From: Pontiella sp.
Lineage (GTDB): Bacteria > Verrucomicrobiota > Kiritimatiellia > Kiritimatiellales > Pontiellaceae
NCBI GenBank assembly: GCA_050290185.1
Contig: JBNKHE010000010.1
Location: 1 to 64,000 of the forward strand
DNA length: 64,000 nucleotides
Reading direction: 5' to 3'
A program made the position numbers and the translations under genes. How positions within the stretch are numbered: the stretch's first letter is position 1; every line of letters begins with the position of its first letter. The notes below the pieces were generated by a model, which was not told the DNA's origin, made no database searches, and saw nothing but the letters and a program-made list of their open reading frames with translations. Shown one piece after another: positions 8,894-17,848 of this stretch.

Positions 8894-9036
8894 GATGTTG
8901 GGGTAGGGATGGCTCTCCCGAGTGAGGCCCGCCGCAACCAAAATCTCACCACAGAGCTCACTGAGGACGCGGAGGCATAACTGAATTGACCCCTCCGTGA
9001 ACTCCGTGCCCTCTAGCAAAGCGCGTGGTAAAACGA
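8894..9036 (+). repeat. ~145-bp intergenic direct repeat, copy 1 (family B, REP-like)
   Basis: GATGTTGGGGTAGGGATGGCTCTC...AAAATCTCACCACAGAG.TCACTGAGGAC.CGGAGGCATAACTGAA...CCCTCTAGC...GCGCGTGGT recurs at 10087-10231. Its 5' part recurs again at 11727-11762. Confidence 0.85.
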
Positions 9037-9123: not shown

Positions 9124-9354
9124 TCACGAGATAGCATCGGTCGGCGGAGACTCGTTCGTGAATTCCAGCAGGTCGCCGGGTTGGCACTCCAGAATTTCGC
9201 ATAGCTTTTCCAGCGTGCCAAAGCGGATGGCTTTGGCGCGGCCGGTTTTGAGCACCGAAAGGTTTTGAGGGGTAATCCCCACCATTTCCGCTAAGGTATT
9301 AAGCCTCATTTTTCTTCGGGCGAGCATCACGTCTAGATTGACTATAATCGGCAT
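9124..9354 (-). CDS. XRE/Cro-family HTH transcriptional regulator (YozG-like)
   Basis: MPIIVNLDVMLARRKM..NLSVLKTGRAKAIRF.TL..LC..L.CQPGDLL is the YozG-type signature. It lies directly downstream of a DUF2975 gene, the usual arrangement. Confidence 0.92.
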   Translation of the reverse strand: MPIIVNLDVMLARRKMRLNTLAEMVGITPQNLSVLKTGRAKAIRFGTLEKLCEILECQPGDLLEFTNESPPTDAIS

Positions 9355-9369
9355 AACGTTTCCGTCCCT

Positions 9370-9918
9370 TTAAATCGTGAGTTCATTCTCTTCGTGCAAT
9401 CCGCGCCCGTTATCCATTACCCATGAGATCAGCACAAAAAACACGCCCAGAAATAGTGATAGAAGCATCGATCCGCCAATATCTACGGACATTGAATTGT
9501 TCCGATATGCACTTAAACCCAAAGCCAGTATCAATGCGAAAATCTCGTAGCCGGTCCATAGAAGAAAAGTGACGCCAATTTGTTTGAGCTGCGCAACGCT
9601 TTCAGCAGTAAAAATTGCTCCCTTCTCATAGTAGAAGAAAAGTTTGATTACATGGAAAAGCCCTTTGAGCACAATGATAAAGGGAACCGCCAAAAAAATG
9701 AGGAACAAAAATATCGTGCCGATTGAGAAAGAATGGACGGGAATTGTAGTTTCTCTAATTGAAAACGTCCCATCGCCTGATGCAAATACCATGCTGACGA
9801 TCATCGCCAATCCGGCATAGGCAAGGATCGACGCTCCGAACAATCCTTTACAGATGCCTCTAACGATTCCGCTGACCTTGCGGATGTTCTCTAATCTCGC
9901 CAATGCTTCTTTGTCCAT
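9370..9918 (-). CDS. DUF2975 family membrane protein
   Basis: Four hydrophobic segments, YEKGAIFT..SV.QLK.IG and C-terminal G..L.EENELTI; paired with a YozG-like HTH gene. Confidence 0.85.
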   Translation of the reverse strand: MDKEALARLENIRKVSGIVRGICKGLFGASILAYAGLAMIVSMVFASGDGTFSIRETTIPVHSFSIGTIFLFLIFLAVPFIIVLKGLFHVIKLFFYYEKGAIFTAESVAQLKQIGVTFLLWTGYEIFALILALGLSAYRNNSMSVDIGGSMLLSLFLGVFFVLISWVMDNGRGLHEENELTI

Positions 9919-10086: not shown

Positions 10087-10231
10087 GATGTTGGGGTAGG
10101 GATGGCTCTCTGAGCCGTCCGCTCGCCGCAACAAAATCTCACCACAGAGGTCACTGAGGACACGGAGGCATAACTGAACTGGCCCCTCCGTGAACGCTGT
10201 GCCCTCTAGCGAGAGCGCGTGGTGAAAACGA
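10087..10231 (+). repeat. ~145-bp intergenic direct repeat, copy 2 (family B)
   Basis: Aligns by eye with 8894-9036. Confidence 0.85.
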
Positions 10232-11926: not shown

Positions 11927-12091
11927 ATGAAAACTCTTGATAGGCTGGATTATGCTAATCGAGTGACAGATGAAAAACAGCTTACTCGAATAATGGAAGC
12001 AGTCAAAAAAGGGCAGAGTGCTGCTATTGACGCAATGAAGCAACGTGAGCTTAGAAATAAGCAAACTGATCTTCGGATCTTCCCTTTCTAA
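11927..12091 (+). CDS. Small 54-aa protein, absent from the ORF track
   Basis: GGAGG RBS at 11917-11921, ATG 11927, TAA 12089-12091. Translation: MKTLDRLDYANRVTDEKQLTRIMEAVKKGQSAAIDAMKQRELRNKQTDLRIFPF. It ends 14 bp before the next ATG. Confidence 0.65.
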   Translation: MKTLDRLDYANRVTDEKQLTRIMEAVKKGQSAAIDAMKQRELRNKQTDLRIFPF

Positions 12092-12105
12092 ACTAGCTCT
12101 CACAG

Positions 12106-13620
12106 ATGGGCAACTTTTCCTGCTTCAAGCATATAGAAGACATAGCAGATCTTTGCTTTTTTTCCAGAAGCATAGTTAAAAGTGCCGACTATCCTATTCC
12201 TCTTAACAAAATCCTATTCACCCTGTTCCGGCGCGAATACTTGAAAACGATTCTTGTCGAGGAAGCACCTGCGAATGATCAATATCTTGATGAATGTAGG
12301 GGAACTCATGCCGATCCCAAATATTTAATTCGATATCATTTTTTCAAAACGGCCGATCCTTCCAATCTATCACCCGGTATTTATGGCGGGTATTGCGATG
12401 TGCGTCCTGAAGGATCAATAGCAGAAGCATTTATCACAACCGAAACCATCACAAGCGGGAAGGATGATTCTTATGTATTCATGCCGTGTCATAGCAAGAT
12501 GTCCATTGCAGTGCCGCTGCCCGATCAATCCAGTATGGATTGTGAAATTGTAGGGTTCCCATATACAGAAAAGAATCATAAGGAAACGATGTGCGCCCAA
12601 GCGGCATTGCTTGGCATTGTGCAATACTGGCAAAGAAAAAATCCTGGATCTTTTCTGGATGTTAAATCAGCAAAGGACATCAATCGGTTGGCTGGCGTTG
12701 ATGAAGATCAAACGGGAGGACTGGATGCCAGGCAAATCAAGGAATTTTTTGCGTCTACTGGATTTGATGCTGAGTTTCTTGATTATTCGATGAGGATTTT
12801 TAGTGATGTGGATCGTCTCCACTTGGCGACAGATATTTATAGTTTCATCGAATCGCAGTGCCCAGTTCTAGCTGCAGTGAAAACACATAATGGAGGGCAT
12901 GCCCTAACTTTCATAGGCCATACTTTTGATAAGAATAGTTGGGCTGCAATGGCCGACCCCGGATATTTTGGAAAAACAAACGACTACTTTCATGAAAATA
13001 CGTCGTGGATAGAAAATCTTATTGTTCAAGACGATAATTTTGGCCCCTACTACTTTTTTCCATTTCATCGACTGTCGAAAATCATCAATTGCGCAATCAT
13101 TGCCTTACCATCATCTGCGATAAACATACTTCCGCATGAAGCAGCTAATTTTGCTGTGCGACAAACATTGTACTCCGCTGGTTTTTTGCAATTTCTTCAC
13201 GAAGAAATAGCGAAAACTCCTCTGCTGGATATCAACAAGCAATGGTTTGATGAATTTATCAAACACCTAAGCCCTACATGTGGAGACGGACTGGTTCCTC
13301 GAACGATTTTGCGTACTGGACAGCAGATGCTTGCTGACTATGCTGATCATCAATTTTCAGAAGTTGTAGATGCTTTACTAAATCATCCGGACTCACTAAA
13401 TCAATACTACTGGGTGGTTGAGCTGAGTTGGCCAAGCATCTACTGTTTTGGACAAAGCAAGAGTGGTGCTATCCTTGTTAACGCTAGCAATGCTGAAATC
13501 AGCTTTGTTCATGTCCCTGGCATGTGCATAGCGTTCTCAGGTGGTAAGCCATTTGTGTGTATCGCAGAAGAAGAGGACGCTCCTTTTGTTCATCTGAAGC
13601 CCGGCGTGCTCTCTCATTGA
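12106..13620 (+). CDS. Putative papain-fold (C39-like) cysteine peptidase, 504 aa
   Basis: Ordered motifs FPY..TM-C163-AQAAL, GGL...QI, YSFIES..PV, G-H265-ALTFIGH and IVQ-D309/D310-NFGPY give a Cys-His-Asp triad in papain order. Confidence 0.65.
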   Translation: MGNFSCFKHIEDIADLCFFSRSIVKSADYPIPLNKILFTLFRREYLKTILVEEAPANDQYLDECRGTHADPKYLIRYHFFKTADPSNLSPGIYGGYCDVRPEGSIAEAFITTETITSGKDDSYVFMPCHSKMSIAVPLPDQSSMDCEIVGFPYTEKNHKETMCAQAALLGIVQYWQRKNPGSFLDVKSAKDINRLAGVDEDQTGGLDARQIKEFFASTGFDAEFLDYSMRIFSDVDRLHLATDIYSFIESQCPVLAAVKTHNGGHALTFIGHTFDKNSWAAMADPGYFGKTNDYFHENTSWIENLIVQDDNFGPYYFFPFHRLSKIINCAIIALPSSAINILPHEAANFAVRQTLYSAGFLQFLHEEIAKTPLLDINKQWFDEFIKHLSPTCGDGLVPRTILRTGQQMLADYADHQFSEVVDALLNHPDSLNQYYWVVELSWPSIYCFGQSKSGAILVNASNAEISFVHVPGMCIAFSGGKPFVCIAEEEDAPFVHLKPGVLSH

Positions 13621-13649
13621 TACGTAGGGATAGCTTTTAGTCTGGAAGA

Positions 13650-14003
13650 CTACTTAGATCGCTTTTGACGAAGGAATTCGATGTAGTTCAAGACATCGGT
13701 TACCTCCTCATCGGTCAAATCATTGATTTTGCCTAATGCGGTCTTGGGAAGTGAAGATGTTTGCTTCTTGTTGCTTTTGCATTCTAGGACATATCCTGCC
13801 GCAATCATCAGGTCGTTAACACCAATGTCATAGCAATTGGCTAGTTTTGTTAGTGTTTGTGCAGAAGGGTTTTTAATTTTCCCATTTTCCAATTGCGAAA
13901 GATAGGGGTTTGAAATCCCTGTCTCTGCTTCAACTTGTCGTAATGACATGTCACGAGCCTGCCTTAACAGACGAATTTGTGCTCCTAGCTTTTCCTTGGC
14001 CAT
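13650..14003 (-). CDS. XRE-family HTH transcriptional regulator
   Basis: LG..IR.LR....SLRQV...TGISNPYLSQLENG...NPS...L..LA; short C-terminal dimerisation helix (EVTDVLNYIEFLR). Confidence 0.92.
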   Translation of the reverse strand: MAKEKLGAQIRLLRQARDMSLRQVEAETGISNPYLSQLENGKIKNPSAQTLTKLANCYDIGVNDLMIAAGYVLECKSNKKQTSSLPKTALGKINDLTDEEVTDVLNYIEFLRQKRSK

Positions 14004-14016
14004 TTTCCCTCCAATG

Positions 14017-14121
14017 CTGTTAGTGATGACTAACAGGTATAAATATGAAACGCAATGCTAAGTATATCAAAAAATAATACATTGCAGTGCTTGACAGATT
14101 TAGCATGCGGTGGTTTATTAC
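14017..14121. promoter_or_regulatory. Divergent promoter/operator region between the XRE gene and the Ubl operon
   Basis: Perfect dyad CTGTTAGT-GATG-ACTAACAG (14017-14036). TTGACA at 14091-14096 with TTTATT 17 bp downstream on the + strand. Confidence 0.55.
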
Positions 14122-14196
14122 GTGTGCGATAGACGCAAAAGGATTGCTGTATCCCGAGCAGCAGTAATTCTGGAAACAGCTCGGTGGAGTAATAAA

Positions 14197-14439
14197 ATGA
14201 AAGAAGAAAAAAGTGTTAATGTATTGGTGGATGGCGAGGACGTGACTATTCCGAAGAAAAACGTGACTGCACGTATGATACTGGAAGCTGCGGGCTTAAA
14301 TGTAAACGAACGGTATCTGATCGAAGTGAATGGATCGAATAGAATATCTTATAAAGATAGGCTGGATGAAGAGATCAATGGTATTCATGAGAGTAAAGAA
14401 TTCCTGACTGGTCGGATTGGTCCCGTGACGGTGTCGTGA
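14197..14439 (+). CDS. Ubiquitin-like (beta-grasp, multi-ubiquitin-type) protein, 80 aa
   Basis: V.VLVDGE......VTAR.IL..AGL....YLIE...EEI..IH...EF pattern typical of Multi_ubiq-type domains. First gene of an E2/JAB-E1 operon; GGAG RBS before ATG 14197; ends GRIGPVTVS. Confidence 0.75.
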   Translation: MKEEKSVNVLVDGEDVTIPKKNVTARMILEAAGLNVNERYLIEVNGSNRISYKDRLDEEINGIHESKEFLTGRIGPVTVS

Positions 14440-14822
14440 TGAATGTCAATGAGGGAGCACAAGCTTTTGCTGATCAATTGAGAAGCATTGGTATTCAGAG
14501 TTCGATCAAGCATCAAACATGGGTTGAGTTTGACTATGTTGTCGAGGGCGGAAAATTTGCAGGTACATCAGTCAAGATGGCGATCAATGTGCCGAATAAT
14601 TTTCCTGCAACTCCGCCATCGGGGATTAATTTTTCGCCGCGTTTGATGCCTCAGAATACCAGTGCTCAACATCCTCAAAGAAGCCACCCGTGTCGCCATC
14701 CCGACTGGAAAGCCAATGGCGAGTATTGGAGTAGGCCGCATAGCACGTGGAATAGCGAAGGAAATAAGAATGCCCAGACATACATGGCGTTTGTTCGGCA
14801 ATTATGGGGGGATGTTGTATGA
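14439..14822 (+). CDS. Prokaryotic E2/UBC-like protein
   Basis: F.Y.V.GG.F.G..V..AI.VP.NFP.TPP.G..F.P core and a YWSRP...W motif resembling prokaryotic E2 family E. TGATG coupling to the Ubl gene. Confidence 0.72.
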   Translation: MNVNEGAQAFADQLRSIGIQSSIKHQTWVEFDYVVEGGKFAGTSVKMAINVPNNFPATPPSGINFSPRLMPQNTSAQHPQRSHPCRHPDWKANGEYWSRPHSTWNSEGNKNAQTYMAFVRQLWGDVV

Positions 14823-16189
14823 AGGAGTATAGCGTTGCGCTATCAGACGAAACATATGCAGGCATAGAAAAACACCTAATTAGGGATGATGGTCAGGAAG
14901 ACCTATTATTTGCCTTTTACGTTCCGAGTACGGGAAGCAACAGGTTTTCCGGTATTATCAAAGAGCTCATTCTACCGAAAAAAGGAGAACGCATCCTGCA
15001 TGGTGATGTCTCTTTTACGTCGGATTATTTTGATCGTGTCATAGACATGCACCTGCAAAATCCAGCACGAGGAATTGCGCTCATTCACATCCATCCGATG
15101 GGGGAACAATGGCAAGAACTGAGTTACAATGATCATGTAGCTGAACAGGGTATGGCGGGAGCTGTACACGCACTGACAAAGCTTCCATTGCTAGGCATCA
15201 CGTTCGCTGGAATTACTGGAGCGATAAGCGCCAGGTTTTGGAAGAAGAAAGATGGGGAATGGACGCCGCATCATTGCCACAATACGCGAACGGTTGGTAA
15301 GGCGTTGGACGTATCATATCGTCAATTGACTGAAAGTGATGAGGAATACTTAGATCGTACAATTCAGGCGTGGGGTAATACGCTGCATTCAAAAATTATT
15401 AATGCGCGAGTTGGAATAGTTGGCTTGGGCAGTGTTGGGTCCATTGTCGCCGAGGGGTTGGCTCGGATGGGTATCCATAAATTTGTTTTGGTAGATGGTG
15501 ATGAAATTAAAAAAGTGAATTTGGACAGAACAATAAACTCAACAAGGAAAGATGTCATTGACCGGCGAAAGAAGGTCAGTGTTGCTCGCGATGCAATTTT
15601 AGAAAGTGCTACAACAGCAGATGTTCAGATAGCAACCTTTGAGACCTTTGTTCAAGAGCATGAGGCATATCGAAATCTCATAGACTGCGATGTCATTTTC
15701 TCATGTGTTGATAAACCACTCGCCAGATCGATCGTCAACTTTATTTCATACGCACACCTAATTCCAGTTATAGATGGTGGTATCAATTGTTCCAAGAAAG
15801 ATAATGACACCTTAAGGTCTGCCGATTGGGGAGTGTTTGTGACGTCCCCTGGAAGAGCATGCTTGGAGTGCATTGGACAATACAATCTAGGAGATGTCCA
15901 AATGGAGCAGGAAGGACTACTAGATGATCCCAACTACATTGATTCATTACCCTCTGACCACTTTGCTAAAAAACATGAAAACGTCATAGTGTTCAGTCTA
16001 GCCCTAGCAGGTCAAGAGTTGCTGGCCTTTGTAAACCTTTTTGGCAGGCTCTCAGGAACGAGTGCAGATAATTATTTAAAAGTAAGTTATCCATCAAACT
16101 ATGTTGAGTCGGGTAATGAGCGCTGCAATGAGAACTGCCATTACCTCAATATTCTAGGGATGGGTGATTTAATTTCGCCGCCAATTTGA
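14819..16189 (+). CDS. JAB/MPN metallopeptidase fused to a ThiF/E1-like adenylation enzyme
   Basis: N-terminal domain has QED...IHIHP-x8-SYND (JAB E..HxH..S..D). C-terminal domain has VGIVGLGSVGS, VDGD.I...NLDR, FSCVD, VIDGG and Zn ligands CLEC...CNENC. ATGA overlap with the E2 stop. Confidence 0.88.
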   Translation: MKEYSVALSDETYAGIEKHLIRDDGQEDLLFAFYVPSTGSNRFSGIIKELILPKKGERILHGDVSFTSDYFDRVIDMHLQNPARGIALIHIHPMGEQWQELSYNDHVAEQGMAGAVHALTKLPLLGITFAGITGAISARFWKKKDGEWTPHHCHNTRTVGKALDVSYRQLTESDEEYLDRTIQAWGNTLHSKIINARVGIVGLGSVGSIVAEGLARMGIHKFVLVDGDEIKKVNLDRTINSTRKDVIDRRKKVSVARDAILESATTADVQIATFETFVQEHEAYRNLIDCDVIFSCVDKPLARSIVNFISYAHLIPVIDGGINCSKKDNDTLRSADWGVFVTSPGRACLECIGQYNLGDVQMEQEGLLDDPNYIDSLPSDHFAKKHENVIVFSLALAGQELLAFVNLFGRLSGTSADNYLKVSYPSNYVESGNERCNENCHYLNILGMGDLISPPI

Positions 16190-16249: not shown

Positions 16250-16337
16250 CATCTACGTTCAACATGAGCCGTCACGGGAAATAAACGTTGCCTAAAATAC
16301 GGCGTTGTACCGTGTCGGCTCAATGTTCTGGTTCGAA
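16250..16337 (-). mobile_element. attC-like integron recombination site with degenerate R'
   Basis: Minus strand reads TTCGAAC (R'')-CAGAA-CAT[T]GAGCCGACACGG...CCGTGACGGCTCATG (L''/L' stem with one extra-helical base)-TTGAAC-GTAGAT. It starts 8 bp after the stop codon of the upstream gene. Confidence 0.65.
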
Positions 16338-16345
16338 CAATATTT

Positions 16346-16909
16346 TCAACATTGCAAGTGCTTTCCAAGTAAGACATCTAGCTCAAGGGAAAGAGTTTTG
16401 GTTTTGAAGAAGGTATAGGCGTCATCATCAGCTCCACGATTGATTAGGCTCAGAAATTCCATGACATAAGAGGAAACGTATTTCCAGATAGCGTTTGAAT
16501 CGTACCTTGAATTGGCCCAATTCACTAATCTTAATCCAACGATATAGTAATCATCTAGATCCTGTTTTCTGTCAGGATTATCTGATAAATATATTGTCCG
16601 TTTCCTGAAGTCTCGAAATGCGGTCATTTCTTCGCCATCGTCAGGCAATCCCAAAAAACTAACAACGGAAGAGGTGATATAACATCCCCCCCTAATCGTT
16701 GAGAGTAAGCTCATTAGTTTGACAATCCAGCCTATTAAATTCTGAAGCCAGTCGTGGGCATAATTGTCATCATTGCTGATACGACGCTTTTCAGCTTCAT
16801 TAGCATTTCTAATTCGACTACGAGCCCGGTCTACAATGTCACTTTCACAGGAACTACAATACGTTCCTGAGCCGTATATTTCATCTCCACAGTCTCTGCA
16901 ATAAGGCAT
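16346..16909 (-). CDS. Zinc-ribbon plus CFI-box-CTERM-like domain protein
   Basis: N-terminal CRDCG......YCSSC. GGCYITSSV..FLGLPDD.EEM..FRDFR....YY resembles the GCFIATA..LR.FRD..YY CFI-box pattern. Confidence 0.7.
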   Translation of the reverse strand: MPYCRDCGDEIYGSGTYCSSCESDIVDRARSRIRNANEAEKRRISNDDNYAHDWLQNLIGWIVKLMSLLSTIRGGCYITSSVVSFLGLPDDGEEMTAFRDFRKRTIYLSDNPDRKQDLDDYYIVGLRLVNWANSRYDSNAIWKYVSSYVMEFLSLINRGADDDAYTFFKTKTLSLELDVLLGKHLQC

Positions 16910-16911
16910 GA

Positions 16912-17766
16912 TTACTCCCCAACTATATCGGCTGCGACTGCTTTCTTTCCGAGATCGCTCATGAGCTCAGTATGGTCTTTAATTTCTCTATGGCGTGATA
17001 CTTTTATTTTTTTCTCCTCAGGAAGATACTCCATAAACTTGTCAAACACCTGATCGTGGTTCCAGCGTTTCCTCGCAGAGCAAACAACAATCTGATCTCT
17101 ACTGATCTCAACGTATTCCTCTAGTTTTTCTATGATGTCGCTTGTTCGTTCTTCGATTAATTTCCGCAAAGCTTTAGATGGGCCATTAAAATCCAAATCC
17201 CATCCGACGACGCCTTTAATTTCCATTTCTTGGGATAGAAGTATTTGGTCAACCTTGTTTAGGACAACGACAAGTTTTTTTCGATATCCTGTTCTATCAA
17301 GAATTTTTGCCATGTTCTTTTGGATATGTGCAACATCTCGACTTGAGCCATCGAGGACCCAATAAAGCAGGTCGTGATTAGGAATTTCCTTTACCCATTC
17401 CTCTAGGTATTCTTCTTCTTTTTCTGTTGATTCGCCGAGTCCTGGGCCATCTGTAAACTGGACTCGAAAACCCTCTTCATTTTCAATCATGAATGAGAAA
17501 AACGACTTCGTAACCGACCGAACCGCTCCTGTTTCAAGTCTACTGTAGTCTGCGTCGTTACCATGAAAATGTTGGTGCTCAACAATGTCGGAGTCTGAGA
17601 TTTTAAAAATTGATTTCAACAACTCTGTTTTGCCAACACCAGTTTGACCAATCCCAATGATTTTAACAGGAATCTTTAGATCCTCAGCAAGGAGATCTAA
17701 CTTTTTTTGCTTTTCCTCATCAGGGATATCTAGCATTTCAATTAGTTGTTTTAATTTAGGGTTCAT
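16912..17766 (-). CDS. TRAFAC GTPase, YfjP/YeeP-like
   Basis: G1 GQTGVGKT, G2 SVT, G3 DGPGLGES, G4 NKVD, G5 CSA. AAAGGAG RBS precedes ATG 17766. Confidence 0.85.
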   Translation of the reverse strand: MNPKLKQLIEMLDIPDEEKQKKLDLLAEDLKIPVKIIGIGQTGVGKTELLKSIFKISDSDIVEHQHFHGNDADYSRLETGAVRSVTKSFFSFMIENEEGFRVQFTDGPGLGESTEKEEEYLEEWVKEIPNHDLLYWVLDGSSRDVAHIQKNMAKILDRTGYRKKLVVVLNKVDQILLSQEMEIKGVVGWDLDFNGPSKALRKLIEERTSDIIEKLEEYVEISRDQIVVCSARKRWNHDQVFDKFMEYLPEEKKIKVSRHREIKDHTELMSDLGKKAVAADIVGE

Positions 17767-17784
17767 TACTTCTCCTTTATTAGA

Positions 17785-17848
17785 TTCGAACCGGTGATAG
17801 GCAGAAAAAGTTCCGCCTAGCACATAGGTTTTTGTGTTAGGCGGAATT
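17785..17848 (-). mobile_element. Cassette 5' boundary with attI-like repeated sites
   Basis: Minus-strand GTTCGAA (17791-17785) is exactly complementary to the R'' TTCGAAC of the attC. It is preceded by three TAGGC(A/G)GAA motifs at 17798-17806, 17811-17819 (inverted) and 17838-17846. Confidence 0.45.

Follow-up and report, generated by a model that had tools for sequence, protein, structure and literature searches.

A block of six genes at positions 11927-16189 of the first 64,000 nucleotides of Pontiella sp. contig JBNKHE010000010.1 (hereafter, the window) raises the question of whether a ubiquitin-like (Ubl) conjugation operon, a papain-fold cysteine peptidase and a very small protein make up a single system, as a preliminary description of this DNA had proposed. 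All six open reading frames (ORFs) of that description were found at the same positions and on the same strands. The locus nevertheless very probably consists of two separable modules lying in one AT-rich island: the Ubl, E2 and JAB-E1 genes (module A), and the peptidase gene with the small ORF (module B).

The occurrence of the two modules was profiled across 116 peptidase loci, which fell into 103 clusters at 90% identity, 84 of them flanked by at least 3 kb on one side and 48 on both; all were searched with Ubl, E2, JAB, E1, BubE and CapP queries. No Ubl operon was present in the available flank at 81 of the 84 non-redundant peptidase loci, and none of nine JAB-E1 loci examined carried the peptidase; one conserved six-gene system was rejected on this evidence. 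Besides the window, three peptidase loci (3/84) adjoin a Ubl operon, each of a different type, a count that is a lower bound because the flanks are incomplete; among the 40 loci fetched last there was none. The gene order is peptidase, CapP, CapH and a Type II Bil-like operon at L052, and CapP, CapH, a Type II Bub operon that keeps BubE, partner and peptidase at L094. At L092, on a Mesorhizobium plasmid, it is partner, peptidase, JAB-E1, E2, Ubl and XRE, so that all six gene types are present, in an order different from that of the window and with a JAB-E1 from another clade (profile E 1e-31). The preliminary description had considered that the peptidase might never stand beside a Ubl operon in other genomes; it does so at these three loci, and together with the 81 loci without such an operon they show that adjacency recurs and is optional.

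These adjacencies, and the absence of BubE from both the window and L092, could mean that Ubl operons use the peptidase as an optional protease arm, a deconjugase or maturase that replaces BubE and has the small protein as its regulator; the fold relatives of the enzyme include ZUFSP/UfSP proteases. We consider this unlikely, given the many loci without a Ubl operon in the available flank, the BubE retained at L094, the orientation that differs from case to case, the distinct JAB-E1 clade at L092, and seven BubE-less three-gene plasmid operons that have no peptidase. The deconjugase and XRE-cleaving roles offered for the peptidase by the preliminary description are both judged less probable than one connected with its small partner.

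The partner in the window is a 54-residue protein (11927-12091, forward strand) with charged helices and a hydrophobic C-terminal tail (LRIFPF), a predicted binder of the 504-residue papain/C39-like cysteine peptidase encoded immediately downstream (12106-13620, forward strand). That so small an ORF is a real gene, as had been claimed, is supported by L022, where a relative with 61% identity is encoded directly upstream of a peptidase with 67% identity, and by the recurrence of such partners next to peptidases. In the first 70 loci, a charged ORF of 52-80 residues, with a helix and a hydrophobic tail, adjoins the peptidase gene in an upstream, downstream or convergent position. Once nine duplicates and the loci ending within 400 bases of the peptidase gene had been dropped, a partner was chosen by eye in 40 of the 41 non-redundant loci with both flanks, the exception being L021. 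A leave-out partner profile, trained without sequences at least 35% identical and used to rank all ORFs of 40-115 residues in each locus, placed the chosen partner first in 41/51 loci (1.8 expected), although composition alone may favour real ORFs. In a blind test on later loci, from which six truncated loci were excluded, the small ORF with the highest score lay next to the peptidase in 16/38 (3.65 expected). All four plasmid records with the peptidase have an annotated gene of 52-60 residues upstream of it. The similarities of enzyme and partner are correlated (Mantel rho 0.33, 0/2000 permutations; 0.11 among distant pairs), which we do not count as co-evolution because kinship alone yields it. 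The pairing counts support the peptidase and the small protein well as a portable two-gene unit. At L008, L012, L018, L032 and L037-L040, the partner and peptidase genes are on opposite strands and meet tail to tail, yet they remain linked.

Literature searches returned no description of the pair, in agreement with the earlier claim that these two genes are not a known part of Ubl operons; the searches did not extend to subscription papers or to the operon tables in the supplements of PMC11601596 and PMC13373217, in which neighbours of this sort or three-gene operons may be listed. Neither the window peptidase nor its partner was matched in the PADLOC 2023 and NCBIfam 2026 libraries. The peptidase had no match above cut-off in Pfam, NCBIfam or PADLOC, its profile gave only chance ribosomal matches (E 0.25 or worse) among sequences of solved structures, and of 62 family members scanned, none matched NCBIfam and six matched Peptidase_C39_2 weakly (E 0.001 or better). 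In the protein atlas, the peptidase has look-alikes without names (C39_2 in 11% of the members of one cluster) and the small protein has no usable match. The nearest named relatives of the enzyme are in a Pontiella assembly (69%) and a Kiritimatiellia assembly (42%).

The assignment of the enzyme as a papain-fold Cys-His-Asp peptidase was borne out by its structure model and by the conservation of C163 (130/130 relatives), H265 (129/130) and D309 (129/130). The model (pLDDT 95.5) has a papain-fold catalytic centre at residues ~110-338, followed by a C-terminal domain (~340-504) on which the partner is predicted to dock. Its fold neighbours are nearly tied (Z 12.8-13.9: phytochelatin synthase, PeiR, C39 domains, staphopain and Mug105), with the phytochelatin synthase Alr0975 at Z 13.9 (rmsd 3.3, 166 aligned), leader-cleaving C39 domains at Z 13.0-13.3, Mug105 at Z 12.8 and UfSP2 at Z 11.8; the top Foldseek matches are C39 domains. 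The C-terminal domain had no clear fold match (best Z 5.9, with weak PepSY-like rows for YpmB and YpeB at Z 5.4-5.6) and none in Foldseek at E 0.001. Residues R399, W436, E439, S441 and P443 of this domain (window 13300-13435) are near-invariant and lie outside the predicted partner interface, and they might mark a further binding site or else a structural core. Two plasmid peptidases, from Pseudomonas (L094:6827-9007) and Shewanella (L095:6851-9010), have an extra C-terminal domain of ~200 residues (GHP...ARI.GE...SGRYS) without a Pfam match, which may be a fused effector.

The distribution of the peptidase is patchy, with 18/401 genomes positive in a sample of the window's own phylum and 12/301, 10/301 and 15/135 in three other phylum samples, each count taking in its centre genome; none of the seven other genomes of the genus carries it. 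It occurs in 4 of 72,556 plasmid records, phage records gave no match, and IMG/VR gave one prophage-like locus (L021), the sole one of the 41 without a partner. The profile recovered 2891 representatives (50% clustering) at E 0.001 and 369 at 1e-30. The pair marks out a large protease family that has no name, and its cognate small protein escapes both gene callers and libraries of defence systems.

A model of the peptidase-partner complex scored 0.68 and the best of three controls 0.00, on a scale where the mark is reached by 116/157 solved complexes and 2/215 mismatched pairs; the runs had at least 82% of contacts in common, and the partner pLDDT was at least 71. Partner residues 3-44 contact the C-terminal domain of the modelled peptidase. 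The interface lists also include residues 162-164, 204-209 and 263-266 of the enzyme and 49-54 of the partner, which would place the partner tail in the catalytic cleft (Cys163/His265). On this prediction, physical binding of the two proteins is likely. The small protein would dock its helices on the C-terminal domain and lay its last six residues in the cleft, and, as a cognate plug or antitoxin, it would hold a cytoplasmic protease inactive; infection or stress would remove it, and the protease would then cut a host or phage target. We give the role of the partner as an inhibitor nearly an even chance, and the fuller proposal drawn from the model, in which module B is a toxin-antitoxin-like defence module whose partner blocks the protease up to the onset of infection or stress, a slightly smaller one.

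The dock-plus-tail geometry of the model could also be that of a dedicated substrate, whose helices are recognised like a leader peptide and whose tail is cut, with either the release of an active peptide or the transfer of an acyl-enzyme to a target amine, that is, ATP-free tagging by one enzyme. The near tie among the closest folds (the transpeptidase Alr0975, leader-cleaving C39 domains and Mug105/UfSP2) would suit such a role, as would the partner tails, which run 0-10 or more residues beyond the hydrophobic motif. However, the 51 tails share no conserved scissile motif (Gly-Gly in the last 12 residues in 0/51; last residue F in 14, R in 9, Y in 8 and others in 20), and for this reason a plug is preferred over a substrate. 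Many partners also stop at a hydrophobic residue, with nothing left for cutting, and neither a transporter nor a modifying enzyme travels with the pair. We regard a substrate role as rather unlikely. Still more doubtful is a minimal ATP-independent system for tagging or untagging that acts against phage proteins, in which a papain-fold transpeptidase and a dedicated helical tag, with its tail entering the active site, were recruited repeatedly beside Bil and Bub operons.

A defence role for the locus had been suggested in the preliminary description, and for the pair it is judged probable. Up to three genes on each side of 54 loci were surveyed (225 of the 237 listed ORFs scanned), and restriction-modification (RM) genes were found near the pair in seven of the 54 (L005, L039, L076, L078, L082, L086 and L090); at L090 the pair sits between hsdS and hsdR. 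Further neighbours include nSTAND3, AbiEi, Panacea, WYL-type, integrase and prophage genes. In a controlled comparison with PADLOC at 1e-25, the neighbours of 40 new loci had matches for 17/128 genes and the genes of 20 arbitrary regions from seven genomes for 3/129 (Fisher p 0.001), although neighbours at the same locus are not independent.

Several points weigh against a separate, plugged protease with a defence role. Counted per locus, neither the defence enrichment (11/40 vs 3/20, p 0.35) nor that of RM genes (6/40 vs 0/20, p 0.17) is significant, and at many peptidase loci the surrounding genes are housekeeping genes. In the leave-out test, the partner from the window itself came no higher than 4 of 147, and the blind test failed at 22/38 loci; at several of these a second partner subfamily can be seen by eye. 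Among the contact pairs of the complex model, the 25 resolved best all involve the helices and none the tail. Its placement in the cleft is accordingly less certain, and such a placement would suit a substrate as well as an inhibitor. Finally, RM systems are far commoner than Bil or Bub, and next to 13 loci adjoining RM genes three independent Ubl adjacencies look numerous, a point in favour of a functional link between the modules.

The pair might instead spread selfishly on mobile DNA as an addiction or stress module, with no activity against phages. Mobile-element genes (integrase, prophage or transposase) at L016, L053, L091, L021 and L048, the four plasmid records, the sporadic insertion among housekeeping genes and the per-locus test all agree with this, but the pair is inserted in or next to RM operons at L076, L082, L086, L090, L129-L131 and L161, and so few of the plasmid records examined carry the peptidase that we consider it improbable.

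Between the two modules lies a gene for a 117-residue XRE/CapH-like repressor (13650-14003, reverse strand; Pfam HTH_3 E 8e-14, PADLOC capH E 8e-11), which is divergent from the Ubl operon and tail to tail with the peptidase gene. The gap between the XRE and Ubl genes contains an imperfect 16-nucleotide inverted repeat (14055-14106), a candidate operator. According to the accessible text of PMC11601596, CapH and CapP accompany 168/544 Bub operons. The locus itself has no gene for CapP (an IrrE/M78 metallopeptidase), and the sole M78 match of the genome is on another contig (C16, E 3e-5). The peptidase could therefore be imagined to stand in for CapP, cleaving the CapH-like XRE and switching on the Ubl operon; the window and L092 both have an XRE gene without an adjoining ImmA/IrrE gene, and at L052 the peptidase gene occupies the place of capP. 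This is very improbable, however, as L052 and L094 carry CapP in addition to the peptidase, XRE relatives occur in only three loci of the first set, and the genome does have the M78 match elsewhere.

Module A, judged by its sequence, is a Bub/6E-type operon, as the preliminary description had recognised. It encodes a single-domain, BubA-like Ubl (14197-14439, forward strand; 80 residues from the ATG), a Cys-less, BubB-like E2 (14439-14822, forward strand; 127 residues) and a BubCD-like fusion of a JAB peptidase and an E1 (14819-16189, forward strand; 456 residues). A JAB-E1 profile, built from 24 of 120 listed relatives (1909 found), had Citrobacter BubCD as its best match among solved proteins (E 9e-38, profile positions 7-418; next family 2e-15). 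The JAB site (E27, H90, H92 and D105) and Y373 are invariant in 24/24 relatives, and no Cys occurs between the CxxC (348-351) and residue 436, a stretch that takes in the crossover loop. [quoted passage not shown] Both H78 and YWSRP of the E2 (Pfam Prok-E2_E E 0.009, UQ_con E 0.017) are retained in 9/9 relatives, with S98 invariant and no conserved Cys, and the S98-R-P is not the Ser-x-His of Type I Bub. The Ubl matches Multi_ubiq weakly (E 0.0012, short of the curated cut-off); its last residue is Ser, with no terminal Gly, and in related Ubls the last residue is Ala or Ser. If module A works as Citrobacter Bub does, the E1 would adenylate the Ubl tail and pass it through Tyr373 and then Ser98 of the E2 to target lysines, the JAB domain would trim or remove the tag, and the divergent CapH-like XRE would repress the operon.

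No bubE (DUF6527) was found among the flanking ORFs, nor in the genome by tblastn with one BubE query, and the features of Bil and Cap2-Cap3 systems (a separate JAB gene with Cys-dependent E1 and E2, or an E2-E1 fusion accompanied by a CD-NTase) are absent, as JAB is fused to E1, the E2 is Cys-less and there is no cyclase. The part of PMC11601596 available to us places bubE in all Bub operons, and that of PMC11601603 adds no third Bub type. Class 6e, as defined in the accessible text of PMC1779556, allows two or three genes besides E1, and we therefore regard the BubE-less operon as a variant of the known Bub/6e kind. The same three-gene form was present in 7/7 plasmid records examined of 18 found, one of them without an annotated E2, and it offers a simple Bub-type chassis. 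These seven operons (L096-L102), on actinobacterial and haloarchaeal plasmids, adjoin HigBA-like or ImmA/IrrE regulators, DarTG, AbiE and restriction genes, and a prophage-like IMG/VR contig (L074) has a complete Type I Bub operon with CapP within a Mu-like prophage head gene region. Phage protection by Bub operons has so far not been shown, according to the accessible text of PMC13373217.

The couplings and the AT-rich composition reported for the locus were both confirmed. The Ubl and E2 genes are joined by TGATG (14437-14441), with a stop codon that excludes a BubAB-type fusion, and the E2 and JAB-E1 genes by ATGA (14819-14822). The G+C content is 0.42-0.44 in 1-kb bins from 12 to 18 kb and 0.48-0.63 (mostly 0.52-0.62) from 18 to 64 kb, and the AT-rich block, which spans ~9-18 kb, is broader than the six genes. 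GGAGG/GGAG-type sites precede the small ORF, XRE and Ubl genes, and scans of the locus for promoters and terminators were no better than chance level. An attC-like hairpin (AAC...GTT, one bulged base) lies directly 3' of the JAB-E1 gene (16261-16327), with five related copies on other contigs of the genome and two integron integrases above the family cut-off, also on other contigs. As a single attC-like site was found, on the right side only, the six genes were rejected as one integron cassette. On the reverse strand beyond it (16346-17823), an AT-rich pair of genes for a GTPase (MMR_HSR1, weak DolB/LeoA matches) and a 187-residue protein with an N-terminal zinc ribbon is possibly a further defence cassette. 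Related imperfect palindromes (8953-9014 and 10146-10207) bracket a DUF2975 and HTH_26 gene pair (9124-9918).

If the partner plugs the protease, bacterial immunity would gain a protease-based sensor or effector; if it is ligated, a new route to protein conjugation would be at hand. Among known systems, module A is closest to Type I Bub (Citrobacter BubAB, BubCD and BubE; accessible text of PMC11601596), with which it shares the JAB-E1 fusion, a Tyr in place of the E1 Cys, a Ser-type E2, a Ubl of the multiubiquitin family and a divergent CapH-like repressor. Unlike Type I Bub, the window has separate Ubl and E2 genes and neither BubE nor CapP, its E2 has S-R-P rather than S-x-H, and its Ubl ends in Ser. 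The arrangement recalls CapH and CapP in that an XRE gene is divergent from an immune-type operon and adjoins a peptidase gene, but this peptidase is a cysteine enzyme with its own partner that faces the XRE gene tail to tail, and not an IrrE-type metallopeptidase.

The enzyme of module B shares the papain fold and Cys-His-Asp residues with C39 and Peptidase_C39_2 proteins (ComA, PCAT1) and with Alr0975. C39 domains recognise leader peptides as short helical partners with the tail in the cleft, and the peptidase-partner model resembles this. Unlike C39 proper, the pair has no double-glycine motif, no transporter fused to the peptidase or conserved among the neighbour genes scanned, and extra N- and C-terminal domains on the enzyme. 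The Ubl proteases ZUFSP, Mug105 and UfSP also have the papain fold (Z 10.9-12.8 over 177-201 residues), but the partner here is helical rather than beta-grasp and most of the peptidase family is without any Ubl. Module B differs from type II toxin-antitoxin systems in that it has no sequence match to their known families, its partner has no DNA-binding domain and the two genes are sometimes on opposite strands. It resembles both these systems and staphopain with staphostatin, a protease-inhibitor pair, in having two linked genes, the smaller of which encodes a partner predicted to block the active site.

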